A stretch of DNA of 64,000 bases from a virus. Below the pieces are notes generated by a model that ran no database searches, was not told where the DNA came from, and saw nothing but the letters and a program-made list of their open reading frames with translations. The translations under genes and the position numbers were made by a program. The stretch lies in the IMG/VR virus record IMGVR_UViG_3300010938_000006, positions 1-64,000 of that record, one strand, 5' to 3'. Of this stretch, positions 3,189-55,906 are shown in pieces; the stretch's first letter is position 1; each line of letters opens with the position of its first letter.

Positions 3189-3432
3189 AGATCATACCTA
3201 GATTTTCTTTCAGTTTATTTTGGGTATTCTGCTTCAATTCTTTTGGAGCAGAGGTCTGCATAGTCATCATATGAGCTATAGCCTTAAGTTTACTAAACTT
3301 TCGACCAGCCTCAGTATCAAACTTAATATGGAGGTCAACTCCAAAAAGGACAATTTTATCACCCATTTTGACCAACAGATGACCGCCAACTAAAAAGATA
3401 TTTCCTATAAAATTCTTTATTTTCATAATCAT
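3166..3432 (-). CDS. hypothetical protein
   Basis: 88-aa ORF in operon context. Confidence 0.45.
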   Translation of the reverse strand: MIMKIKNFIGNIFLVGGHLLVKMGDKIVLFGVDLHIKFDTEAGRKFSKLKAIAHMMTMQTSAPKELKQNTQNKLKENLGMIYAPKKSD

Positions 3433-3464
3433 ATTATACCACTCTTTAAAAAGAATAACCAGAT

Positions 3465-4400
3465 TTATTCTTGTTCTTCATCGCCTTCTAATAAATCGAA
3501 ATCCTCTCCCCATTGATCTTTATGCGTATTTTTGTATTCTTGTATAGCATCTTTATCATTGGGAATGATAGCGTCCGCAGTAATAACAAATTCTCCAGAA
3601 TTAGTAGTATTTGAAATATGATTCTTATCTACTTGAATTTTTGAGATAATTCCGAATCCCATTTTCTGACCATTTACCGTAGCATACAACTTCTGTCTGC
3701 GAGAAGTTTTTATTACTAAGCTACTTCGGAACCAAATAGCATTACCGCCATAAGGAACCGTAGTGAAAGGTCCACCAGGAAACTGAGGAGGTTGAACATA
3801 AGCTTGGTTTAAAATAACTAATCCTACAGATTTAGGATACGAAATTTTCCGAGTATCGTTTATCTTTTTAGAGATAACCCGCATACGTTCTGAAATAACT
3901 TTAGCAGCTTTCATCATAGTGGACTTCTTTTCCCAAGTCCCGTCTTTTTGAACTTCTATTTCATCTTTACTTAGCGTATTGCCAACACTATCCCACATAA
4001 TAAGAACGTCAGTAGGTAAATCTCCCATACTAACGTCAGAGGTAATCTTATCAATAAAAGCAAAGGCATCTTCAAGAAAATCTAAACCTTCTTGGACAAT
4101 GGCACTATCTTTATCAAAATTCATTTGCTTAGCTCTATCCCAATCTACTTTTCCTTCTGTTATAATCATAACAGGCATAATACCCATCTTTTGGGCCTGA
4201 GCGGCGGCATGAAACATTAAACTGGTTTTTCCAGTATCACTTAGCCCATAGATTTGAGTAATATGACCTAGAGGTAATCCATGTATCCCAATAACTTGTT
4301 TTAAGCAATCATCTAATTCTACAAATACGTCTTGTTTTAGCGGAGTATCTGCTACTTTAATACTTTTTTTGTACGCATCTAAATCAAATTTCTTAGCCAT
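3465..4400 (-). CDS. RecA-fold recombination ATPase (UvsX/Sak4-like)
   Basis: Walker A GLSDTGKTS, Walker B LIMWDSVG, RecA-like core length. Confidence 0.6.
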   Translation of the reverse strand: MAKKFDLDAYKKSIKVADTPLKQDVFVELDDCLKQVIGIHGLPLGHITQIYGLSDTGKTSLMFHAAAQAQKMGIMPVMIITEGKVDWDRAKQMNFDKDSAIVQEGLDFLEDAFAFIDKITSDVSMGDLPTDVLIMWDSVGNTLSKDEIEVQKDGTWEKKSTMMKAAKVISERMRVISKKINDTRKISYPKSVGLVILNQAYVQPPQFPGGPFTTVPYGGNAIWFRSSLVIKTSRRQKLYATVNGQKMGFGIISKIQVDKNHISNTTNSGEFVITADAIIPNDKDAIQEYKNTHKDQWGEDFDLLEGDEEQE

Positions 4401-4720: not shown

Positions 4721-5143
4721 TTATCGCTCATAAGAATCTATTAGAAAATTATTATAGATGTATAAGTATCCAGGAACAAAGTTTTTTGGTTTTTCCGTTA
4801 TGGTTAAAGATGACGGAGCCAACTCAAAGCTAAAATATATTTCTTGTCTTTTAGCCATTTTTTTAGATATCCCATTAAATATATTTAGCCATTCTATCGT
4901 ATACAATCTTAACTTATTTAAGTCTTCTTCGCAAATACAAAATGCAGTAACATTTAAAGTTTTGCCTTTTGGAAGATTAAAAGATTTCTTATTTGAAGAC
5001 TTGTATAGAAGTTTTCCTATTGGAAGTAATTCATCTGTTGCCCAACTGTAAAACTTTTCATAAGGAGAATTCATTTTACTAGTGCCTCTAAATTTAGACA
5101 TTCTAGGAAGTTTAATAATCTTATGTATTTTCTGTCTAGCCAA
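4721..5143 (-). CDS. hypothetical protein
   Basis: 140-aa ORF. The track start is TTG, so the true start may be an internal ATG. Confidence 0.45.
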   Translation of the reverse strand: MARQKIHKIIKLPRMSKFRGTSKMNSPYEKFYSWATDELLPIGKLLYKSSNKKSFNLPKGKTLNVTAFCICEEDLNKLRLYTIEWLNIFNGISKKMAKRQEIYFSFELAPSSLTITEKPKNFVPGYLYIYNNFLIDSYER

Positions 5144-5483
5144 GCTTTTGTCCTATAGATTTACGTGCAGACTTTCCACCAGTAGCCAAAACAAGTAAGT
5201 ATCCTATACGAAATTCGTTAATATCATAGGCATCGGTTCTAGAAGAACGAAATTTCTTCATATATGCTCGAATAGAGTAAATTCCATAAGCTCGTTCTAG
5301 TCTACATCCTAAAGACCGATGACCTCGTTTATCGCTACTTTTTAGATAAGTAATTACTTAGTTAACGGTTAACACTCAATTGTTTTTAACTGAGTTTTTT
5401 ACTCGTCTCTTAACTAAATTAGTATTCGTTGTATTAATAAACGTTACCAAATCTCGGTAGAGTTGTTCGCTTTTAGTAATCAT
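5136..5483 (-). pseudogene. 115-codon reading frame with two internal stops (TGA 5376-5378, TAA 5358-5360)
   Basis: ATG 5483 sits in an ATGA overlap with the upstream stop. The frame stays open to TAG 5136 apart from the two stops, which flank the palindrome GTTAACGGTTAAC. It could also be two mini-ORFs. Confidence 0.35.
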
Positions 5484-9338: not shown

Positions 9339-10365
9339 TTACCCTATCCACTGCTTCTTTAAATTCTTGTGGTTCTAGACCTAGAGATATTCTAACATAT
9401 TCCGGCTTACCAAACAAGTCTCCATTAAGAACTTTTACTTTAGCAGCTTCAAAAGCTTTATCACATTTTGAACCTTTAGGAAGAAAAGCAAACATGCCAT
9501 TAGGAGACATAAACTTTACGTCTGCGATATCTTTATGCAGTGTTTTAAGTACTGTCCTATTCATAGCAAAATCTTTTTGACATAAAGTAACAAAATCATT
9601 GTATATTTCTGGTTTAGAATCAAACAGTTGTTCTAATTTTAATACTATTTGTTGGGAAGCAGAAGACACTCCAGTTGTTGTAATTTCCATATATTCAGAT
9701 GCTAATTCAGCATAAGTAGCATTATTAGTAGCTAAATATCCTATTCTAAGTCCTGATAATCCTAAGGATTTTGAATATGAGTGTATATACATTGAACAAC
9801 TATTCTCTAATCCAAATAAGGTTGGTAAATATATTTTAGAATTATAAGCTCCATCATGAATGAGAGGTAAGTTATCTGCTTGACAATCCATGTTAAAAGC
9901 ATCAAAATCTTGTTGATTCATCATATACCCATCTGGATTATTGGGTAGCGTTAATAAAATAGCTGTTTGATCATCTATCAGCGTATTACTATGAATTACA
10001 TTTAAATCCTCTTTTAAGGCTAGGGTGGGGAAACTTACCCAATAAGGTATTGGTATATATACAGAATCGTAACCTTGGGCCTTTACGGCAGCAAAGGAGG
10101 ATGATATAGCTTGCTTTGCACCATTTGTTATCACGATATATTTATAGCCCGTTTTGTTCTTTAAAAACTCTACTAATTCTGGTATTCCAGTAGAAGGTTT
10201 ATATTCGTGCGTAAGTATGTCATTATTACAGACAATATGGTTGTTTACCCCATGCTTATCTAATACAGATTTAAGGTTAATAGATACTAACTTAGGCTCG
10301 CCTACAGCTAAGTTAATCCAACCTGGAGCCAATTCTTTTCTTAACTGTAAATCAGGTTTACTCAT
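9325..10365 (-). CDS. PLP-dependent aminotransferase (class I/II fold)
   Basis: PLP-lysine motif YSKSLGLSGLRIGY and LPNNPDG, in a 346-aa fold-type I length protein. Its 3' end overlaps the polA ATG. Confidence 0.75.
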   Translation of the reverse strand: MSKPDLQLRKELAPGWINLAVGEPKLVSINLKSVLDKHGVNNHIVCNNDILTHEYKPSTGIPELVEFLKNKTGYKYIVITNGAKQAISSSFAAVKAQGYDSVYIPIPYWVSFPTLALKEDLNVIHSNTLIDDQTAILLTLPNNPDGYMMNQQDFDAFNMDCQADNLPLIHDGAYNSKIYLPTLFGLENSCSMYIHSYSKSLGLSGLRIGYLATNNATYAELASEYMEITTTGVSSASQQIVLKLEQLFDSKPEIYNDFVTLCQKDFAMNRTVLKTLHKDIADVKFMSPNGMFAFLPKGSKCDKAFEAAKVKVLNGDLFGKPEYVRISLGLEPQEFKEAVDRVNAQI

Positions 10366-10441
10366 ATAAGTGCTTGGTTACCTTTTTTGCTCGTTTTGCC
10401 CCTCTTTGTAACAAATATTCGTAAGTCCGTTCACCAGTCAT
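10358..10441 (-). CDS. 27-aa mini-ORF ending HLYE
   Basis: MTGERTYEYLLQRGAKRAKKVTKHLYE. Its TATGAGTAA end embeds the aminotransferase ATG. Confidence 0.3.
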   Translation of the reverse strand: MTGERTYEYLLQRGAKRAKKVTKHLYE

Positions 10442-10450
10442 AGGAACTGT

Positions 10451-10690
10451 TTATATATATTTAGCAAAGTCATTTAACATATTATGGTGTAACAATACGT
10501 CATATTTTATGTGTTTTGGGCTGTTCTTATTTTTAAGAACTTTGGCCTTTATTTTAAGAGCAAATTTTTTATTATTTTCTACTTGTAATATCATTCCATC
10601 TGATAGGATAAGAATATCTTCTATTTCACAATCTTGGATATCCTTATAAGTACCAGTTTTATACCAAATATTCAATACATCAGTTCCCAT
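10451..10690 (-). CDS. hypothetical protein
   Basis: 79-aa ORF. Confidence 0.5.
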   Translation of the reverse strand: MGTDVLNIWYKTGTYKDIQDCEIEDILILSDGMILQVENNKKFALKIKAKVLKNKNSPKHIKYDVLLHHNMLNDFAKYI

Positions 10691-12220: not shown

Positions 12221-12415
12221 TCAAGGTTCACCATTTTCGTATAAATAATCTATATCAAAACACCATTCTATTTGTTATTCATCTTTTGGATGAAAAACTA
12301 AACAATCTACTTCATTATAATTATTACCTAATACTCTATAATAAGAGTCTTTAAGTTTAAATACAGTATCTTTAGAAAATTTGAATCCGTAAAAATGTAT
12401 TTCATGCAAACGCAT
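12221..12415 (-). pseudogene. small ORF interrupted by in-frame TAA (12275-12277)
   Basis: ATG 12415. Reads MRLHEIHFYGFKF...HPKDE*QIEWCFDIDYLYENGEP. The frame is otherwise open to TGA 12221. Confidence 0.4.
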
Positions 12416-12428
12416 TACGAATCTTTTC

Positions 12429-12842
12429 CTATAATTCTACTGTCCATTGATATTCTTCAGGACTATGAGCATATCCATTTTTAAACACATAATAATGCGT
12501 TAAGGGTAAAGTGCTTTTTAATAATAAATCTCTGACTTTGCCGTTTTGTTCTAACTTTGCTATATAAGCCATTTTAAGAAACTCTTGAGGAACTTGGTCT
12601 TCTATTCCATCTTGAAGAGATTCTTTACCTAAATTTTTAGCTTGAATTCCGCTGAGTGAACGTAAATTCTCATTACCTGTTAAGATATAATACCAAAAAG
12701 CTTCTACGCTGGCAAATTGTCCAAAATCTTCTAGTTCAAATGGTGTTCGAGGAAAATTAGATAATAAACGACCTAATTCAGTCTTTCCATTAGAATAGAC
12801 ATTAATGTGGTCTATTCCATCATTTTCAGGATTCCATTTCAT
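12429..12842 (-). CDS. NADAR (YbiA/DUF1768)-like protein
   Basis: INVYSNGKTELGRLLSNFPRTPF...GQFASVEAFWYY resembles the NADAR FYS..SNF..P...G..SxEHYFQ pattern. ATG 12842 is in an ATGA overlap with the macro-domain stop. Confidence 0.45.
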   Translation of the reverse strand: MKWNPENDGIDHINVYSNGKTELGRLLSNFPRTPFELEDFGQFASVEAFWYYILTGNENLRSLSGIQAKNLGKESLQDGIEDQVPQEFLKMAYIAKLEQNGKVRDLLLKSTLPLTHYYVFKNGYAHSPEEYQWTVEL

Positions 12843-13297
12843 AATTCCCAAACTGTCCAAGAATATCCAATCTCTTTAATTTTTTTACAGATAATTTCTT
12901 CAGTTTTACTCCAAAGAACTTTAAATAATCCAGCATTAATTTTTGGAGAATGTACTTCTATAGTATTATCTAAATTTCTAAGTAATTCTGATATTGCTTA
13001 CTCTATTGATTGTAGAATTACTCGTTCGGAACTTTTATTTTTACTGTAACTTATACTAGTAAACAAAAACCCTATATTTTGAGAAATGGCTTTGGGATAA
13101 TAATATATTCCTAAACCTAATAAAGCCTCTTTATGTGTATTACACAATCTTTTGTATTCTTTATAATGATTTGGATACTTAATCTTAAATTGAGCGGCTA
13201 TACCTGCTCCCCAAAACCCCGTACAATTGCCCGCATGTATCAATATCGTATTTGGTCCAGCCGCATTAAATAAATTTCCTTTACAATACTTTATCAC
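12839..13297 (-). pseudogene. macro domain (ADP-ribose-binding/hydrolase) gene with in-frame TAA at 12998-13000
   Basis: N-part is KGNLFNA...ILIHAGNCTGFWGAGIAAQF. After the TAA the same frame continues AISELL...VHSPKINAGLFKVLWSKTEEII, which is the conserved C-terminal macro motif. Confidence 0.7.
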
Positions 13298-14551: not shown

Positions 14552-14910
14552 TTTAACTCCTGTTTTTGATAGCTATCAAAGCCAGTATAGCATACTTCTA
14601 TTATACCAGCAACTCTTAATGCGTTTGTGCATACTGGGCACGGTTTACTCATACCCATAGTACCATCATTTTTTAAACGATATATATAAGCGGTGGCACC
14701 TTTCGTTTCGTTTATAGAAAGACCTAAAAGACTATGCAATTCTGCATGTAGATAATTACCATAAGTATTACACTTAGGGTGAGTCTTTTTCATATCATTA
14801 AAACCAAAACCTATTATTTTGTTCTTTTTAACGATACAACAACCTAGTTTAAATTTAGAACTAGATTTTTGTGCTAATCTTTTTGCTATGTCGAAATATT
14901 TAGTCTTCAC
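14548..14910 (-). CDS. CDA-fold zinc deaminase (dCMP-deaminase-like)
   Basis: HAE ... PCPVC zinc-binding signature in 120 aa. GTG start. Confidence 0.65.
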   Translation of the reverse strand: MKTKYFDIAKRLAQKSSSKFKLGCCIVKKNKIIGFGFNDMKKTHPKCNTYGNYLHAELHSLLGLSINETKGATAYIYRLKNDGTMGMSKPCPVCTNALRVAGIIEVCYTGFDSYQKQELK

Positions 14911-15130
14911 TTATCTTTCTAAGATTATTCAAGTACTCCTCATTCATTCCATCATAAATACTTCATTCAGAACTTCTATAATCTTTACTATCTTTAAAAG
15001 ATGTAATATTATTAGCTAGTTCTCTTAGAAAATAAGCACAGTCTTGAGGCGTACTAAAATAAAATTCTCCAGATTCCATTCTATCTTCGTTACCAAAAGA
15101 TAAATATAAGGCATTATGCTTTATCTTCAT
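14900..15130 (-). pseudogene. small ORF interrupted by in-frame TGA (14963-14965)
   Basis: ATG 15130 overlaps the upstream stop. Reads MKIKHNALYLSF...DYRSSE*SIYDGMNEEYLNNLRKISED, and the end overlaps the deaminase start. Confidence 0.45.
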
Positions 15131-20787: not shown

Positions 20788-21404
20788 TAAAATTCAACAT
20801 CTTCCACGTTATTAGATGCTACTGGTGCCTCTTCCGTAGTAAGAGGTTGGGCCGGTTTAGCCACAACTTGTGCCCTTTGAAAGGTAGAAGGACGAATAAC
20901 CTGAGACGGTTGTCGTGACTGATAAGTAGGTGTCGGCCTATTGCTAGCTACGGGAGCAGTGGTAGCAGTAGTCACTGGAGGCTTATGACTTGCAACTGGA
21001 GCCACCGTAGTAGAACGTGACACTGGAGCACTCTTTTGATGATGTACAGCATTCTCATCTGGAGCATCCAATTCTTCGATAGCAGTCATATCAATATTGC
21101 AAGCAAAACGAAGAGCACGAGCTATTGCACGAGTCTCAGCCATACGAAGAAGGGCTCCAGCCACTTTCTTAGCCACATTGTTAGTATTGGCGTCTCCGTA
21201 TCCTGTAAAAGTCTTTTCTTGTCCATTATCAGAGATAGTCACGGTGGCTTTAATAACAGGAGAAGTCAAATCTTCATTAACCAATTCAGTATTAACTGAT
21301 TTTAGTCCTTTAGCATGGGCTTCCTGCAACAATCCAGGAAAAGTAATAAAGTCTTTTCCTTGAACGTTGACTATATATTTACTGATATCAGTTTTGGTTT
21401 GCAT
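20787..21404 (-). CDS. putative single-strand annealing/ssDNA-binding protein with Pro/Thr-rich tail
   Basis: GYGDANTNNV...AETRAIARALRFACNI resembles the Rad52/Sak-type helix. Low certainty. Confidence 0.3.
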   Translation of the reverse strand: MQTKTDISKYIVNVQGKDFITFPGLLQEAHAKGLKSVNTELVNEDLTSPVIKATVTISDNGQEKTFTGYGDANTNNVAKKVAGALLRMAETRAIARALRFACNIDMTAIEELDAPDENAVHHQKSAPVSRSTTVAPVASHKPPVTTATTAPVASNRPTPTYQSRQPSQVIRPSTFQRAQVVAKPAQPLTTEEAPVASNNVEDVEF

Positions 21405-21702
21405 CTTTATTCTCCTCTTCAGAAGAATCTGTTTTATTTTTTTCTAACTCTACGCCAAAATATTTTTCGATGGTTTCCACTGGAATGCCCATTTCGTCCT
21501 TAATAGTAAAGGCGATTAGGTTTTTAGTCAATAAGAAAAAGAATTGGTCTATAATTAAGCACATTGGTATAAATGCTTTTAGACTCATTTTAGTATCAAA
21601 ACCGAGGTATGAAAATACGTGATATATAGCAAAAGCATAGAAACTTCGCACAATAAAATTTCCTATTGTAGCGAAAATTGATGCTAAAATGATACTAAAC
21701 AT
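21388..21702 (-). CDS. small multi-pass membrane protein
   Basis: Start moved to ATG 21702 because the track start runs through the tRNA. Has hydrophobic segments. Confidence 0.45.
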   Translation of the reverse strand: MFSIILASIFATIGNFIVRSFYAFAIYHVFSYLGFDTKMSLKAFIPMCLIIDQFFFLLTKNLIAFTIKDEMGIPVETIEKYFGVELEKNKTDSSEEENKDANQN

Positions 21703-21716
21703 ATATCTCCTAAAAA

Positions 21717-21792
21717 TGGTTGCAGGCCAAGGACTCGAACCTTGTATCTCCACGTTATGAGCGTGGCGAGATAACCCATTCTCCAGCCTGCT
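21717..21792 (-). tRNA. tRNA with CAT anticodon (Met, initiator-like, or Ile2)
   Basis: 76-nt cloverleaf folded by hand. D stem GAGA/TCTC, anticodon stem CCACG/CGTGG, loop CTCATAA, T arm CAAGG-TTCGAGT-CCTTG, encoded CCA. Has an A1-A72 mismatch and an A11:U24 pair. Confidence 0.85.
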
Positions 21793-24386: not shown

Positions 24387-24703
24387 ACGCTAAATGAAGT
24401 CCCACACCCACAGCTTTTTGTAGTATTTGGGTTAAAAAAACTAAAGCTTGTACCATTAAGGCCGCCATTATAGTCTAACACAAGTCCTTTAAGAAATAAA
24501 GCACTCTTAGCATCTATCAAAAACTTGATTCCTTCTTGCTCTACTATTTTGTCTGCAGGGGTGGCTTCTTCTGTAAAATCTAATTTATAACTTAAGCCAC
24601 TGCATCCACCGCCAATAACAAATACTCTCAAAAATGCTTCGTTTGAATATTCTACAGATAGTAACTTTATTTGTTTTAAAGCAGATTGTGTAGCAGACAT
24701 CAT
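24383..24703 (-). CDS. IscA/HesB-type iron-sulfur cluster assembly protein
   Basis: GGGCSGLSY ... SCGCGTSF signature. Confidence 0.85.
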   Translation of the reverse strand: MMSATQSALKQIKLLSVEYSNEAFLRVFVIGGGCSGLSYKLDFTEEATPADKIVEQEGIKFLIDAKSALFLKGLVLDYNGGLNGTSFSFFNPNTTKSCGCGTSFSV

Positions 24704-27658: not shown

Positions 27659-27878
27659 AAAGTTGTTTAGCTATTTCAGAATTTGCTGGTAGTTTGTCCC
27701 AATTGGCTCGCATTTCATTTTGATTGCACCAACCATTTTTTCTACCAGTTGTGGGATTTTGCAATATGAATCTACCCCAATTTCTATTGCCTTCTCTATG
27801 AATAATTCTAAACTATTTAGTTCTTTTGTTTTGGACTAAATCTCCAACATTTAAGCTAATTAGCTCTTCGTGTGTCAT
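27648..27878 (-). pseudogene. LLY-tail family ORF interrupted by in-frame TAG (27813-27815)
   Basis: ATG 27878 in an ATGA overlap. Reads MTHEELISLNVGDLVQNKRTK*FRIIHREGN...EIAKQLYGK. The stop overlaps the next ATG. Confidence 0.6.
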
Positions 27879-28366
27879 TTCATAGCCTTTCTGACCTTAC
27901 GAATATAGCTCCTATTCCAAATCTCACCTTTAGCATTAAATTTAAGATGCCCTAAATTATAAGCAGCAAGGGCATGGTCTTCATTTTTGTATTTCTTTAA
28001 AAGCTTGGCTAAGTGTGCCGCAGCACAGATGGCATTAATAGAGGGGTTAAATAGCTCTTTGTAGTTTCCTTTAAAGAGGCATGGAAACCCTACAGAACGA
28101 GCTGTAGAGGGCTCAATTTGACATAACCCTACCGAAGGTCTACCCGCTTTGCTCCAATTAATTGCAGACGGTTTTAGACCACTTTCTACAGTATATAAGG
28201 CTATCATTAGCTTTTCTGGTACACCTTGAACGTAGGCAGCAGTTTTAATCATACCAGTGTGATAAGCATCTTTGTATGCTTTAGACTGCAAAGTACACAC
28301 CTTATCAGCACAATCAGCATAGCTTATGCAAGTAAAGATAGTAAATATGTATATGATATACTTCAT
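27875..28366 (-). CDS. lytic transglycosylase (SLT domain), secreted
   Basis: Signal peptide, VESGLKPSAIN, GLCQI, AYNLG. Confidence 0.8.
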   Translation of the reverse strand: MKYIIYIFTIFTCISYADCADKVCTLQSKAYKDAYHTGMIKTAAYVQGVPEKLMIALYTVESGLKPSAINWSKAGRPSVGLCQIEPSTARSVGFPCLFKGNYKELFNPSINAICAAAHLAKLLKKYKNEDHALAAYNLGHLKFNAKGEIWNRSYIRKVRKAMK

Positions 28367-35957: not shown

Positions 35958-36815
35958 TCAATACAATTCAAGTAGTGAATCATAGGAATTTTCTAAAGCT
36001 TTAACTAGCTTAACCATCTCTTGCGCATCTTTAATGCCAAAATCATTAGCATCAAGTCCAGCTAAGGCAATATGTATTTTATATACAGAGTTGCTCTTAG
36101 AGAGTTTTTTGCCGTACAAGTATTCTATTAAAAATAAAACAGAATTTTTGCGTTTTTTGGCAATATGCTTATTTATTATACCATTAAATTCTAACCTGTT
36201 TTTTCTCCAACGATGTTGAGTAGCTCCAGAGGCAATAATAGAAGAAAACCACTTCTCTAAATCTTTGTGCTCAGGTTTAACAGTAGTATTACTAGTACTA
36301 TATCCTACTGCTTGTACTCTACGATTAGTATAGACTAGTCGTCGATATTCTTCATTATTATATCTAGTAACTACTACATCAATTACAGGATTAATGAGAA
36401 ATTTATCAAAATTTATACAAAGATTTACATACTCAACAAATAAATGGTCTAAAGTAGTAGCATTGGTTTTTTTGCTTGTTACGACTTTAGTGTCTATTTT
36501 AAAACATAGGTCAAAATCATATTTTTCAGGACTGTGATTACTGTATCTATCCGTTGTTACGTAAAAATCTTCTACGAAGTTATTTAGGAAGGGCAGTAAT
36601 TCGTTTGAGCTATAGGTGTTGCGCTGAAATTTGTGCTCTTTAGCATTATGGATTGCTAACCAATCATACGTTAGATTCCCATTTTGAGCACCAAGCAACT
36701 TACCTTTTAATTGAAAACTAATAGTAGTAGGAATAGTTTCAATTTTTTTGTCAGTAGAATCGTAATAGATTTCCAATAAATTTCTTAAAGCCTCAGACAT
36801 AAACGCCCCCAACAT
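35958..36815 (-). CDS. hypothetical protein
   Basis: 285-aa ORF ending in TGA. The frame stays open for 39 more codons, to TAA 35841-35843. Confidence 0.55.
   Translation of the reverse strand: MLGAFMSEALRNLLEIYYDSTDKKIETIPTTISFQLKGKLLGAQNGNLTYDWLAIHNAKEHKFQRNTYSSNELLPFLNNFVEDFYVTTDRYSNHSPEKYDFDLCFKIDTKVVTSKKTNATTLDHLFVEYVNLCINFDKFLINPVIDVVVTRYNNEEYRRLVYTNRRVQAVGYSTSNTTVKPEHKDLEKWFSSIIASGATQHRWRKNRLEFNGIINKHIAKKRKNSVLFLIEYLYGKKLSKSNSVYKIHIALAGLDANDFGIKDAQEMVKLVKALENSYDSLLELY
36023..36038 (-). promoter_or_regulatory. candidate sigma-54-type promoter motif
   Basis: Minus strand reads TGGCATTAAAGATGCG (GG-N10-GC), about 190 nt upstream of the MoxR ATG and inside the 3' end of the upstream ORF. 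Confidence 0.35.
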
Positions 36816-37799: not shown

Positions 37800-38015
37800 T
37801 TACTCATTATACAAGAGTTTTATCATTTTTTTATTTGTCACTGGTAAACACAATGTTTCCAGCTTTTCAGTGTAGTAAGCTTTGTATTCTTCTGTATTTT
37901 TATTATACAGACTATAAAGATTGCCTTTAGTGGTTTTTCTAACTGACCGTATTTCCCACGTAGTTTTATCTCTTAAATGAAAGTAAACTTACCCTATTTT
38001 ATGCGTCTTAGCCAT
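37800..38015 (-). pseudogene. LLY-tail family ORF interrupted by in-frame TAA (37989-37991)
   Basis: ATG 38015 is embedded in the upstream TATGGCTAA. Reads MAKTHKIG*VYFHLRDKTTWEIRS...NKKMIKLLYNE. Confidence 0.55.
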
Positions 38016-39051: not shown

Positions 39052-39399
39052 TTATTTATATTCGCAAACAATAGGACCAGGCAAATATATGCAAGATTCT
39101 AAGTGTCCTTTATGTTTACAAACCTTAATCTTAGTCTCCTTGCACACTTTCTTAGGTGTCGGCTTAGACGTAGGAGTAGGCGGACAAGGTGTTGGAGTTG
39201 GAGGCACAGGCGTTGGGGTAGGAGCTACGCAACACAAAGGAGGCGTAGGTTTGGGCGTAGCAACAGGAGGAGTAGGACACGGTGTAGAAGACGGTGTAGG
39301 ATTAGAGTATACACTATTGTCTGAGCTACAATCTTCACAACGACCACAACCAAACAATCCCATCAAAATAATTACAAAAAATACATAAAACAGTTTCAT
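39052..39399 (-). CDS. Pro/Thr-rich lipoprotein
   Basis: Signal peptide with lipobox GLFGC, followed by PTPxP repeats and Cys pairs. Confidence 0.65.
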   Translation of the reverse strand: MKLFYVFFVIILMGLFGCGRCEDCSSDNSVYSNPTPSSTPCPTPPVATPKPTPPLCCVAPTPTPVPPTPTPCPPTPTSKPTPKKVCKETKIKVCKHKGHLESCIYLPGPIVCEYK

Positions 39400-39413: not shown

Positions 39414-39941
39414 TTAAAATTCTACCTCAACGCCACCAGTAGTCAAGCCATTTGTAAACATTTGTCCAGTAATCCAAACTGGACTTAGCACACGAACAGA
39501 CAAAGAACCACCAATAACAAGACCATCTCTAAGATTATAATTGGTAAGTGATGGGTTGATCTGTAACTGTTTAACTCTAATAGGGCCACAACCTGCGTGT
39601 GCGCCCACTCGAAAACGAGCACGAGTTGGTACATGAATAACTTTAGCACGAGCCTGTGCATCAGCATTATTATTGATATATACATTAACGTTTTGTTTTT
39701 GTTGTTGGTCCTGTTCTTAGTCTTGCTTTTGTTGAGGTTCTCGTTGAACTATTGTTTTAATAACAACCTGTTTTTTAACAGCAGATTTAGACTTTGGCTT
39801 TGGGGTAGCAGGACATAGTTTAACACACTTAGGTTCTTCTGATTATGGTACAGAATCTCCCTTAGCTAGTTTGCTAAACAATACCGAACTGACTACAATC
39901 ATTGCTAAAAACAAGAAAAAATAACCAATAAACGTTTTCAT
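39414..39941 (-). pseudogene. secreted beta-rich (outer-membrane-protein-like) gene with two in-frame TAA (39843-39845, 39717-39719)
   Basis: Strong SD TAAGGAGATAT then ATG 39941. One frame runs to 39414: signal peptide MKTFIGYFFLFLAMIVV..., ...GDSVP*SEEPK..., REPQQKQD*EQDQQQKQ..., C-terminal ...GGVEVEF. Confidence 0.65.
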
Positions 39942-39956
39942 ATATCTCCTTAAAAA

Positions 39957-40103
39957 TTAAGTGTAGCACACTTTCTTTACCAAGTAATCAATAAAAGTTT
40001 TTGCTTCATCAAGATTACAACAAAACATTTTACCTTGTTCGCCTAAGCTTACAAAATAAGCACCAGCGCCATAAGTTTCTATTGTGTATCCTTTATAATT
40101 CAT
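39957..40103 (-). CDS. 48-aa hypothetical protein
   Basis: MNYKGYTIETYGAGAYFVSLGEQGKMFCCNLDEAKTFIDYLVKKVCYT. ATGA overlap with the HNH stop. Confidence 0.45.
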   Translation of the reverse strand: MNYKGYTIETYGAGAYFVSLGEQGKMFCCNLDEAKTFIDYLVKKVCYT

Positions 40104-40291
40104 AATTTTAATAAACCTTTATCATATTCCCAGTGATGATTCGGACATAAATATACCATATTTTGTTTAGTATTTACAACTTTTATCTTAGTATTTTTAG
40201 GAAATTCACTTATACCTTTAAGATGACATACTTCTACATGTTTAGAGTAAGAACATACTTTACATTATTTAGGGATATTCAATCTGTTCAT
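40100..40291 (-). pseudogene. minimal HNH endonuclease with in-frame TAA (40265-40267)
   Basis: MNRLNIPK*CKVCSYSKHVEVCHLKGISEF...NMVYLCPNHHWEYDKGLLKL. ATGA overlaps at both ends. Confidence 0.65.
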
Positions 40292-40593
40292 ATAGGTACG
40301 TAAGCATTAGGACTACCTTTATGTTTATTCCAATAGTATCTTATTGTTCTATTTAAAGTTTTATCTATAATTATTTTTTTAGTACATTTCATGCAAGTTT
40401 TTGAATATTTATGTTTAAATACTCCACACTCACATTTAAATAGTTCAATAGGACTAGAACTATCTTTAATATAACATTTACGACAAGTAATCGAAACTAC
40501 TTGTTTTTTGCTACTGCATCGGCATTTATCGTATTCTATTAATCTTGACATAAAATTGGTACGGGCTGGAAAAGTTGAATTTCTTAGCACCAC
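40288..40593 (-). CDS. Cys-rich (multi zinc-ribbon) hypothetical protein
   Basis: CRC...CRKC...CEC...CMKC pairs in 101 aa. Confidence 0.5.
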   Translation of the reverse strand: MVLRNSTFPARTNFMSRLIEYDKCRCSSKKQVVSITCRKCYIKDSSSPIELFKCECGVFKHKYSKTCMKCTKKIIIDKTLNRTIRYYWNKHKGSPNAYVPI

Positions 40594-46755: not shown

Positions 46756-47373
46756 ATGATACATGATTTAAAGTGTGAATATAGAGGTAACAGAATTAGC
46801 GTGCAACTACTAAGCCAATATAGCGTTGTTAAAGTCAATGATACTTGGGTTAAGTCTGTTATCAATAGTAAATTAAAGTCTTTAATCAATGATATTAAGA
46901 ATGTTATAGATACTGAACATAGAGGTAAACATATGAAGTTAAATAACCGTAGTGTAACGTTACTAGAAGTCTTAGTTACGGGTATCATTATGGGAATGCT
47001 ATGCATGTTTACTATTCCCACTATTAAACTAATGGTAAAGTTGACCAAGCGTGCCGAAAATGCAAGCGTGCAATTAGCACACTAATCTGTAAATACCACG
47101 GTAACGGCAACGGCATTAGACCAAGTTAAGACTAGATGGGTATACGTATATGTACCTAATACTACAGACTGTAAACCCGTTGACATACAATATTGGATTA
47201 AACGCACGGCTAATAGAGTTATCACGTTGTATAAAGACGCACAATGTACCCAATCGTTTGGTACACTAAATGCATTGGATAACTTACGGTATGCTAATGA
47301 TACTACTAAGACGCTATGGGAGGTATCAGGGGATATCGCAACGTTACGTGTTCTATTAATCATATTCCCTTAA
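46756..47373 (+). pseudogene. type IV pilin-like protein interrupted by in-frame TAA (47083-47085)
   Basis: Internal SD AGAGGTAAACAT then ATG 46933. MKLNNRSVTLLEVLVTGIIMGMLCMF resembles a prepilin N-terminus. After the TAA, 95 further open codons contain a Cys pair (TDCKP...AQCTQ) but no start codon. Confidence 0.45.
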
Positions 47374-54286: not shown

Positions 54287-55906
54287 ATGATTCCTGATAC
54301 AATAAAGGAACATAATACTGAAGGTAGGCCACTACGAATACATGAACTTGATATTGAAGCGCTTGCTAAGTGGTTACACGATAATAAAATACGTACCACG
54401 CAAGGTAAGCTAATACAACCTTTGCATGAAGGACATATTGAAGTAATTACAGATCCAGCAAGATTTAAAGTTTTAGCGTGTGGAAGACGTTGGGGTAAAA
54501 CACTTTTAACATCTTTAATGGCATTAGCAGTACTAATGCAAATGAATAGACGTGTTTGGATTGTTGCTCCAGATTATAGTCTATGCGAAAAAGTATTTAG
54601 AGAATTATATAATATTCTGGTAAACCAGTTGAAAATTATTCAACCTGGAAAACCAGGAGGCGGTAGAGCCCGCAATCAAAAAGGCGATTATTATTTGGAA
54701 ACGCCGTGGGGCTCTGTTCTAGAAGCTAAATCAATGGAAAGTCCAGATTCACTTGCGGGTGAAGCGAACGACTTAGTTATTGTTGATGAAGCTGCACTAG
54801 ACTCAAAACTAGAAGATATTTGGGTACAGATGTTGCAGCCTACCTTGATGGATAAGCAGGGCAGTGCAATTTTTATTTCTACCCCTCGTGGAAAAAATTC
54901 TTTTTACAAATTATTTCTTTTCGGAAACTACGGTCGTCGTCAAAGAGATGGTAAATTATCTATTACTATAGACGAAGAGACTGGAGTTTCTAATGACATG
55001 CAAGAGTGGAGTTCTTTTCAAAGAACTAGTTATGATAATCCCCTACTTGCAACAACTCCTGAAAAATCTAAGGAAGAAATTGACTCAGCGTACCGAAGGG
55101 CAATCCTTTCAGGTAAGCTTCAAAAATTCAAACAAGAATACCTAGCTGATTTTGAATCAATCCCCGATACTTGTTTTCCTGGATTTAGAGTAGAAGAAAC
55201 AGAAAAGAAGAAATTTCCTCATGTTATTGATTATAACTGGCATCCATTATCTGGACCAGTGTTTGCTGCTTGCGATCATAACTATGCAAAACCAGCTTCA
55301 ACTATTTTTGCACAGATGAATATAAATGGAGATATTGTAATCTTTGATGAAAAGTTTACTAAAAATACCACCTCATATATGCAAGCGCAACAGATTCTTG
55401 ATAAAGAAAAAGAATTAAATAAAACTGCTATGCAGATTTATCAAGCAGAATGTGTTGAAAGCAAATTTAGAAATCACATTAAGTTTAAAAGTATTGTTGC
55501 AGATATTAGCGGCGATCAACTTCAACTTAATGGTAGAACAGCGTGGGATGATTTTGAATCAGTTTTGGGAAGAAGACCAGTTGGACTAAGACAAGATAGA
55601 GAAACTGGATGTAATATAATTAGATTGTGGTTAGAATATCCACAATTTGATCAAAAAGGTAGTCCAGTATTTGATTCTAATAAAGATCAAGTCACTTTCC
55701 CTAAAATATTCATCACAAGAAATTGTGTAAATCTTATTTATGCTTTAAGTACCGCTACGTTTAAGAAAACAAAAGGCGGAGCATTAAAAGAAGATTATGA
55801 TGAAACTCCAGAAGGTTATGAAGGGCTAATTGATGCTCTCAGATACTTAATGGTTTATTTGTTTCATGATAAAGGAACTCATTTTACGGTTATGAAGGGA
55901 TTCTAA
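54287..55906 (+). CDS. terL: terminase large subunit
   Basis: Walker A ACGRRWGKT, Walker B LVIVDEAA, C-terminal nuclease-size domain. Confidence 0.85.
   Translation: MIPDTIKEHNTEGRPLRIHELDIEALAKWLHDNKIRTTQGKLIQPLHEGHIEVITDPARFKVLACGRRWGKTLLTSLMALAVLMQMNRRVWIVAPDYSLCEKVFRELYNILVNQLKIIQPGKPGGGRARNQKGDYYLETPWGSVLEAKSMESPDSLAGEANDLVIVDEAALDSKLEDIWVQMLQPTLMDKQGSAIFISTPRGKNSFYKLFLFGNYGRRQRDGKLSITIDEETGVSNDMQEWSSFQRTSYDNPLLATTPEKSKEEIDSAYRRAILSGKLQKFKQEYLADFESIPDTCFPGFRVEETEKKKFPHVIDYNWHPLSGPVFAACDHNYAKPASTIFAQMNINGDIVIFDEKFTKNTTSYMQAQQILDKEKELNKTAMQIYQAECVESKFRNHIKFKSIVADISGDQLQLNGRTAWDDFESVLGRRPVGLRQDRETGCNIIRLWLEYPQFDQKGSPVFDSNKDQVTFPKIFITRNCVNLIYALSTATFKKTKGGALKEDYDETPEGYEGLIDALRYLMVYLFHDKGTHFTVMKGF

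Follow-up and report, generated by a model that had tools for sequence, protein, structure and literature searches.

We analyzed a 64,000-nucleotide (nt) stretch of viral DNA (positions 1 to 64,000 of IMG/VR record IMGVR_UViG_3300010938_000006, termed the window) and, within it, a minus-strand gene at 39414 to 39941 (termed the target gene), which is interrupted by two in-frame TAA codons and belongs to an uncharacterized phage family of exported proteins. The phage DNA of the window has a GC content of ∼33%, and its genes lie on the minus strand as far as ∼44 kb and on the plus strand from there on. Among them are genes for PolA, RecA, PhoH, dUTPase, dCMP deaminase, and terminase, as well as structural genes. 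Terminase identity with the nearest isolate phages is <30%. Contigs carrying relatives of its PolA or terminase measure 100 to 119 kb, and an identical terminase (P0130) is found on a 114,940-bp JGI contig. A sister phage (SRR29476932/3) is represented by the Logan contigs L001, L002, L007, and L008 (PolA 97% identical), and L009 (PolA 83% identical) represents an outgroup.

As a first-pass annotation, made from the sequence alone, had described, the target gene opens at ATG 39941 behind a strong Shine-Dalgarno sequence and runs as a single frame to TAA 39416-39414, the two premature TAAs being its sole in-frame breaks (Table 1). The second of them sits between QQKQD and EQDQQQKQ. Mechanical open reading frame (ORF) calling yields only short fragments here, one of 32 amino acids (aa) (39843 to 39941) and a GTG-started one of 64 aa (39414 to 39608). 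In composition-matched shuffles, 528 nt contain on average 12.4 in-frame stops, with ≤3 in 0.075% of cases, and the remaining five frames of the locus contain 7 to 25 stops each. The openness of the frame is thus confirmed to exceed chance expectation.

The conceptual product of the target gene, searched against 5.8 billion proteins, retrieved P0001 (181 aa, E = 6e-71) and P0002 (182 aa, E = 2e-67), both uninterrupted and 61% identical over 99% of the query. Five more, P0123, P0124, P0125, P0127, and P0128 (152 to 174 aa, all uninterrupted), came from a profile search against 1.84 billion representatives, while P0126, a 2,693-aa repeat protein, and P0129, a low-complexity match, were discarded as spurious. 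None of the seven relatives, which span 152 to 182 aa, ends at the first TAA. No match to the locus was found in GenBank phages by blastn or tblastn, nor in scans of IMG/VR, JGI metagenomes, and GTDB with protein-derived and degenerate DNA patterns. The expectation that homologues carry CAA at both interrupted sites was borne out at the second site and not at the first, where the contigs L001, L002, and L003 have a Glu codon (Table 1); among the seven homologues, the residue at the first site is Gln or Glu and that at the second is mostly Gln. A crude comparison of the window with L001 gave ratios of nonsynonymous to synonymous differences per site (pN/pS) of 0.24 before, 0.31 between, and 0.23 after the two TAAs. 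The similarity of these values indicates that the whole frame was under purifying selection for most of the divergence and that the stops are probably young relative to it. The first-pass annotation had named homologues ending at the first TAA, or a downstream frame showing no conservation, as grounds for abandoning the one-gene reading; the frame is conserved past both TAAs, and the locus, judged from its sequence, is one gene. The gene is also mosaic, its 5' two-thirds being ∼70% identical to L001 at the nucleotide level and its last ∼130 nt ∼98% identical, which suggests a recombination junction near 39530.

We then analyzed the proteins of this family, which was previously unannotated. By inspection, all eight members begin with a hydrophobic segment, in most cases followed by an AxA-type site, in line with the export signal noted in the first-pass annotation. 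In the alignment, the order after the signal is a CVKLC or CC motif, then a stretch rich in Lys and Pro, one rich in Gln and Glu, the motif NVN[VI][YH]I, and finally a domain of ∼70 aa; the low-complexity K/P/Q linker is present across the family. In an AlphaFold2 (AF2) model of P0001 built from the eight-sequence alignment (predicted template modeling score, 0.33), residues 111 to 181 have a predicted local distance difference test score (pLDDT) of 75 to 91 and form strands at 116 to 134, 139 to 158, 161 to 168, and 173 to 179, and the linker is disordered; a model from three sequences (pLDDT 40) was uninformative. The C-terminal region is therefore beta-rich, and the window product ends in GGVEVEF. 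A C-terminal Phe is found in all members (six end in [VLF]-E-F and one in L-G-F), with a Gly 6 to 7 residues upstream in most. The beta-signal of outer membrane proteins is a C-terminal motif with a terminal aromatic residue, and the export signal and terminal Phe lend weak support to the outer membrane beta-barrel proposed in the first-pass annotation. This support is limited by the prediction of four strands in ∼70 aa, where a closed barrel has at least eight transmembrane strands, and by the lack of a significant fold or family match: Foldseek against the PDB gave a best E value of 0.5, with porins among the weak matches only, and sequence searches of Pfam, PHROGs, and the PDB returned no significant match for the family.

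The signal of P0001 and P0002 resembles the class III/Flp type (G/QTVIEY), and one member has a weak match to PF04021 (E = 0.0033). We rejected a type IV pilin-like or class III assignment for the family, as the defining motif, cleavage after a Gly with a Glu at +5 of the hydrophobic helix, is absent from the window copy (MKTFIGY) and from the other members. A type IV pilin/class III-like N-terminus (...NNRS/VTLLEVLV...), comparable to that of the sister versions of the target protein, also occurs in the product of a broken gene at 46756 to 47370, and the phage may encode pilin-like proteins. From this architecture, we infer that the intact target gene encodes a small Sec-exported envelope protein in which a signal peptide is followed by a CxxxC motif, a linker rich in Lys, Pro, Gln, and Glu, and a four-strand domain of ∼70 aa. 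More tentatively, this protein may form oligomers or enter the outer membrane, its partner may be the lipoprotein encoded by the next gene, and roles of the pair in surface modification, exclusion, or lysis, for example, are conceivable.

The two TAAs of the target gene are not isolated cases. By tblastn of sister and outgroup proteins against the window, we found 14 solid premature stops, including these two, in 11 of ∼52 compared genes (Table 1). The comparison covers ∼29 kb, or ∼8,000 codons, the regions from 15.5 to 33 kb and from 47.4 to 53.4 kb having no close relative. All three stop codons are involved, and most of the stops are a single GC-to-AT transition away from a Gln, Arg, or Trp codon of the relatives (CAA to TAA, CGA to TGA, and TGG to TAG): TAA lies opposite Gln eight times and opposite Glu once, TGA opposite Arg twice and opposite Gly once, and TAG opposite Trp once. 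The reciprocal search found no in-frame stop in the true reading frames of the relatives, and the sister lineage has none. Three candidates were left out of the count, TGA 41499 (at an alignment edge), TAG 44654 (followed three codons on by an alternative GTG start), and TGA 6411 (weak alignment). In addition, TAG 22999-22997 on the minus strand separates a 155-aa DUF7695 ORF from a 367-aa PD-(D/E)XK nuclease ORF in the same frame; the 28 intervening codons look coding, and this may be another broken gene, although no homologue spans the site.

Table 1. Coordinates of the target gene, its parts and neighbor, and the other genes of the window that carry premature stops
Feature	Position	Strand	Remarks
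Target gene, nonsense disrupted, of an uncharacterized phage family of exported proteins	39414..39941	-	176 codons including stop
Shine-Dalgarno sequence AAGGAG	39946..39951	-	4 nt 5' of ATG 39941 (39941-39939); read directly from the sequence
N-terminal hydrophobic export signal (MKTFIGYFFLFLAMIVVSSVLFSKLAKG/D)	39858..39941	-	Aligns with AxA-type signal peptides of homologues; by inspection
Premature TAA number 1	39843..39845	-	Codon 33; GAG (Glu) in L001, L002, and L003, Gln in P0123
Premature TAA number 2	39717..39719	-	Codon 75; CAA (Gln) in L001, L002, and L003
Conserved C-terminal beta-strand domain ending ...TTGGVEVEF	39417..39629	-	Family alignment and AF2 on P0001
Promoter-like TTGACT-16-TAGAAT	39419..39446	-	Inside conserved 3' end of target gene
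Intact Pro/Thr/Cys-rich lipoprotein gene, lipobox LFGC	39052..39399	-	Next gene 3' of target gene
115-codon gene	5139..5483	-	TGA 5378-5376 (CGA in relatives), TAA 5360-5358 (CAA in relatives)
∼110-codon gene	10361..10690	-	TAA 10453-10451 (CAA in L007, ACA in L009)
Small gene	12224..12415	-	TAA 12277-12275 (CAA in relative)
146-codon gene	12405..12851	-	TAG 12431-12429 (TGG in relative); last 8 codons lost
Macro-domain gene	12842..13297	-	TAA 13000-12998 (CAA in relative); Pfam profile 1-118 spans the stop
76-codon gene	14903..15130	-	TGA 14965-14963 (CGA in relative)
Gene with 319-aa homologue in L001	35844..36815	-	TGA 35960-35958 (GGG in relative); 38 codons short
71-codon gene	37803..38015	-	TAA 37991-37989 (CAA in relative)
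HNH endonuclease pseudogene	40103..40551	-	TAA 40267-40265 (CAA in relatives) and frameshift near 40295
∼205-codon gene, pilin-like N-terminus	46756..47370	+	TAA 47083-47085 (CAA in relative)

The window lineage differs from its sister in the spectrum of its mutations. When single-nucleotide codon changes were polarized over 3,799 codons with L009 as outgroup, those on the window branch were synonymous in 118 cases, nonsynonymous in 40, and nonsense in 2, compared with 165, 15, and 0 on the sister branch. The transition:transversion ratio is ∼8 to 9 on both branches alike, and GC-to-AT transitions account for 27/40 of the nonsynonymous changes on the window branch versus 1/15 on the sister branch. 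The GC content at first codon positions is 0.426 in the window, 0.446 in L007, and 0.441 in L009. The GC-to-AT changes show no flanking-base preference, strand bias, or clustering, and a methylation or deaminase motif around the mutated C/G positions was rejected for want of a sequence context. On the sister branch, synonymous transitions in the part corresponding to window positions 1 to 15.5 kb (L007) are biased the opposite way (120 AT-to-GC versus 34 GC-to-AT), which indicates that the two lineages are diverging in base composition.

Selection is visible in where these changes fall: long genes of known function are avoided by the stops, and the structural genes have none. Per nonsense opportunity, genes of ≥190 codons carry 2 stops in 271 and shorter genes 12 in 241 (Fisher P = 0.005). 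Likewise, GC-to-AT nonsynonymous changes on the window branch fill 1.1% of the opportunities in long genes of known function versus 4.6% in genes that are small and of unknown function (P = 2e-4), and the nonsynonymous/synonymous rate ratio for GC-to-AT changes is 0.048 in the former (0.033 for AT-to-GC) and 0.23 in the latter. The structural genes at 53.4 to 64 kb have no internal stop compared with L011, to which they are 44 to 79% identical.

We propose that the target TAAs are not special but form part of a GC-to-AT transition load that is specific to the phage lineage of the window and that would account for the premature stops, at least 14 in 11 of ∼52 genes, together with the excess of GC-to-AT missense changes, while selection would keep long, essential, and structural genes open. 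Under the standard code, translation from ATG 39941 would end at TAA 39843 and yield the signal peptide plus four residues, so that the product of the target gene would be lost, whereas the lipoprotein gene, possibly with a promoter of its own, would stay intact. In our judgment, decoding probably does stop at this TAA, which would place the gene among the many young null alleles of a GC-to-AT-loaded lineage. The excess itself could result from a burst of deamination, from AT-biased mutation under relaxed selection, or from an artifact. A more specific scenario, in which the lineage passed through a burst of cytosine-deamination type (caused by a DNA deaminase of the host or a competitor, or by the environment) that knocked out accessory genes while essential genes were selected to stay open, is not very likely. 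In a more novel variant, the stops would be tolerated because termination is leaky in the host.

Several observations weigh against the null-allele reading. The first-pass annotation had implied that TAA is decoded as Gln, and an ochre suppressor of the phage or its host, or weak termination, might indeed read it so, perhaps as an early, ambiguous reassignment. Eight of the nine premature TAAs face Gln, as TAA-to-Gln suppression also predicts, 10 of the 11 broken genes are free of frameshifts, and the frames past the stops are intact (pN/pS ∼0.25). ARAGORN and Rfam detected no suppressor tRNA in ∼68 kb (the window and 4 kb to its left via L006), but the genome measures ∼115 kb, and the other ∼47 kb could hold such a tRNA, possibly in a tRNA cluster. 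The only tRNA found, a tRNA-Met(CAT) at 21717 to 21792 on the minus strand, lies between a 121-aa ORF (21388 to 21753, ∼37 nt overlap) and the PD-(D/E)XK nuclease gene. We rejected a global reassignment on terminator usage: on the coding strands, 94 ORFs of ≥80 aa end in TAA 53 times, in TGA 25 times, and in TAG 16 times. TAA is also used at tight junctions where read-through would fuse genes, as in the terminase gene, whose TAA (55904-55906) directly abuts ATG 55907, and it closes the natural end of the dUTPase (...GYGSTGA). The recoded phages surveyed use TAG or TGA, TAA reassignment being unreported among them; their recoded codon accumulates in late genes, they often carry suppressor tRNAs, and their relatives avoid that codon as terminator (bioRxiv 10.1101/2021.08.26.457843). 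Here, on the contrary, the stops lie in short accessory genes and not in late ones, the sister lineage is free of them, and the premature TGAs (opposite Arg and Gly) and TAG (opposite Trp) are beyond rescue by a single ochre suppressor. Moreover, where transitions outnumber transversions ∼8 to 1 and the genome is AT-rich, the likeliest stop-creating change is CAA to TAA, so a TAA opposite Gln cannot separate mutation from recoding. Taken together, the usage of terminators, the tRNA search, the TGA and TAG stops, and the classes of genes affected leave the implied decoding unsupported, and we regard even leaky suppression as very unlikely.

The remaining counterarguments point to an artifact, in which damaged, ancient, or amplified low-input DNA would have acquired the GC-to-AT changes, stops included, through cytosine deamination; these would have become fixed in the assembly consensus, and the gene would be intact in the living phage. 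An excess limited to GC-to-AT is also the signature of such damage, and most of the excess changes are indeed C to T or G to A, on both strands and without sequence context. In addition, among 35 genes of ≥90% aa identity, GC-to-AT nonsense changes fill 1.3% and GC-to-AT missense changes 2.6% of their opportunities; nonsense is thus about as frequent as missense, as expected of unselected errors and unusually permissive for a replicating phage. A second assembly, JGI contig Ga0063162_1004386 (L005; 51,325 bp, metagenome 3300003890), is 99.7 to 100% identical to window positions 24585 to 47639 and contains the same TAAs, differing only by N-gaps and two single-nucleotide polymorphisms (SNPs). 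Identical stops in two assemblies argue against damage, but the assemblies may share reads, and both SNPs are again GC to AT in the JGI copy: one changes Asp to Asn at 35981, and the other, at 47188, replaces CAA with TAA in the gene at 46756 to 47370, which is broken in any case. Random damage would, however, not make stops and GC-to-AT missense changes 3 to 7 times rarer in long genes of known function, nor spare ∼10 kb of structural genes, nor give similar nonsynonymous/synonymous ratios for GC-to-AT and AT-to-GC changes in long genes, and we consider an artifact unlikely. A functional split, in which the 32-aa hydrophobic peptide or the 64-aa C-terminal domain is expressed separately, can appeal to both pieces being formal ORFs and to the JGI annotation, which calls the 64-aa ORF a gene. 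But no Shine-Dalgarno sequence precedes GTG 39608, the start of this ORF, and both relatives have GTT there, on which grounds we rejected re-initiation at this codon; the C-terminal piece would lack an export signal, no family member has such an architecture, and the same kind of interruption affects ten other genes. This makes a split the least probable of the explanations, hardly to be expected at all.

Next to the target gene, the lipoprotein gene remains linked to the family in L001, in L003, and in the more distant L010. A promoter-like site (Table 1) is found within the last ∼50 nt of the target gene, just 5' of the lipoprotein Shine-Dalgarno sequence, and these ∼50 nt are 100% identical in the window, L001, and L003 despite synonymous divergence elsewhere. 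Such sites are no more numerous in the region than expected by chance, and we take this one as no more than a hint that the lipoprotein gene is driven independently. The other neighbors are small unknown genes and the HNH gene. Near the target gene we found neither a holin nor an endolysin gene, and the only lytic transglycosylase match (SLT, 27875 to 28366) is 11 kb off. A tRNA-Ile(GAT) lies directly 5' of the intact HNH gene of the relatives (L001, 2548 to 2621) and is missing from the window. Conversely, L007 contains a LAGLIDADG homing-endonuclease gene (3372 to 3818) with no counterpart in the window, an example of presence/absence polymorphism of selfish elements. Relatives of the terminase with 79% identity (L011 to L013; ERZ1292626, ERR3858111/2) come from assemblies labeled Hain_H43_01um, which we take to mean a groundwater well and a 0.1-µm filter, hinting at the habitat and possibly at ultra-small hosts.

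Viewed alone, the target locus mimics TAA reassignment: it has a poly-Gln run, its relatives have CAA, and the frame is conserved downstream. Whole-genome comparison removes this tempting false lead by tracing the pattern to transition mutations. A nonsense-mutated gene is in itself ordinary; for an environmental phage, so dense a set of transition-derived stops is unusual, although it can be explained. The genome may be a useful test of how mutational decay, DNA-damage artifacts, and recoding can be told apart in metagenomic viral genomes, and the analysis yields, as a by-product, a phage family of small exported proteins tied to a Pro-rich lipoprotein gene.

Phages are known to encode outer membrane proteins and lipoproteins, such as Lom and Bor of lambda and Llp of T5. 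The target gene is reminiscent of these in encoding a small exported protein with a C-terminal aromatic residue, beside a small lipoprotein gene, in a nonstructural region of a large phage of lytic type. No similarity of sequence or fold to known phage outer membrane proteins was detected, and only ∼4 beta strands are predicted here. The gene order, a membrane-targeted protein followed by a Pro-rich lipobox lipoprotein, also recalls the two-component spanins, which consist of an Rz/Rz1-type i-spanin and a Pro-rich o-spanin lipoprotein. In the i-spanin, the N-terminal transmembrane domain is not cleaved and the periplasmic domain is a coiled coil, and its gene lies beside one for a holin or endolysin. 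We rejected this identity because the target protein has a cleavable-looking AxA signal and a C terminus that is beta-rich instead of coiled coil, with no holin or endolysin gene nearby.

As for the mutations, G-to-A/C-to-T hypermutation by cytidine deaminases is exemplified by the APOBEC-type editing of retroviruses. The window lineage shares with it a lineage-specific GC-to-AT excess with many missense and nonsense changes but differs by the absence of dinucleotide context, strand bias, and clustering and by its low overall intensity; to our knowledge, hypermutation by APOBEC-like deaminases is not established for double-stranded DNA phages. With stop-codon-recoded phages (TAG to Gln, "code 15," and TGA to Trp, "code 4"; bioRxiv 10.1101/2021.08.26.457843, PMC9523058), the window shares an AT-rich phage genome and in-frame stops opposite Gln. 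It departs from them in its predominant use of TAA as terminator and in having premature stops of all three kinds; no suppressor tRNA was found in ∼68 kb, and the stops lie in short early or accessory genes at a density of only 14 in ∼8,000 codons. A parallel also exists with classical amber, ochre, and opal nonsense alleles and young pseudogenes, in which a Gln, Arg, or Trp codon is likewise replaced by a stop, the rest of the frame is intact, and relatives retain the sense codon. Unlike these, the window combines at least 14 stops in 11 genes over ∼29 kb, nearly all of them GC to AT and almost without frameshifts, in an environmental phage.

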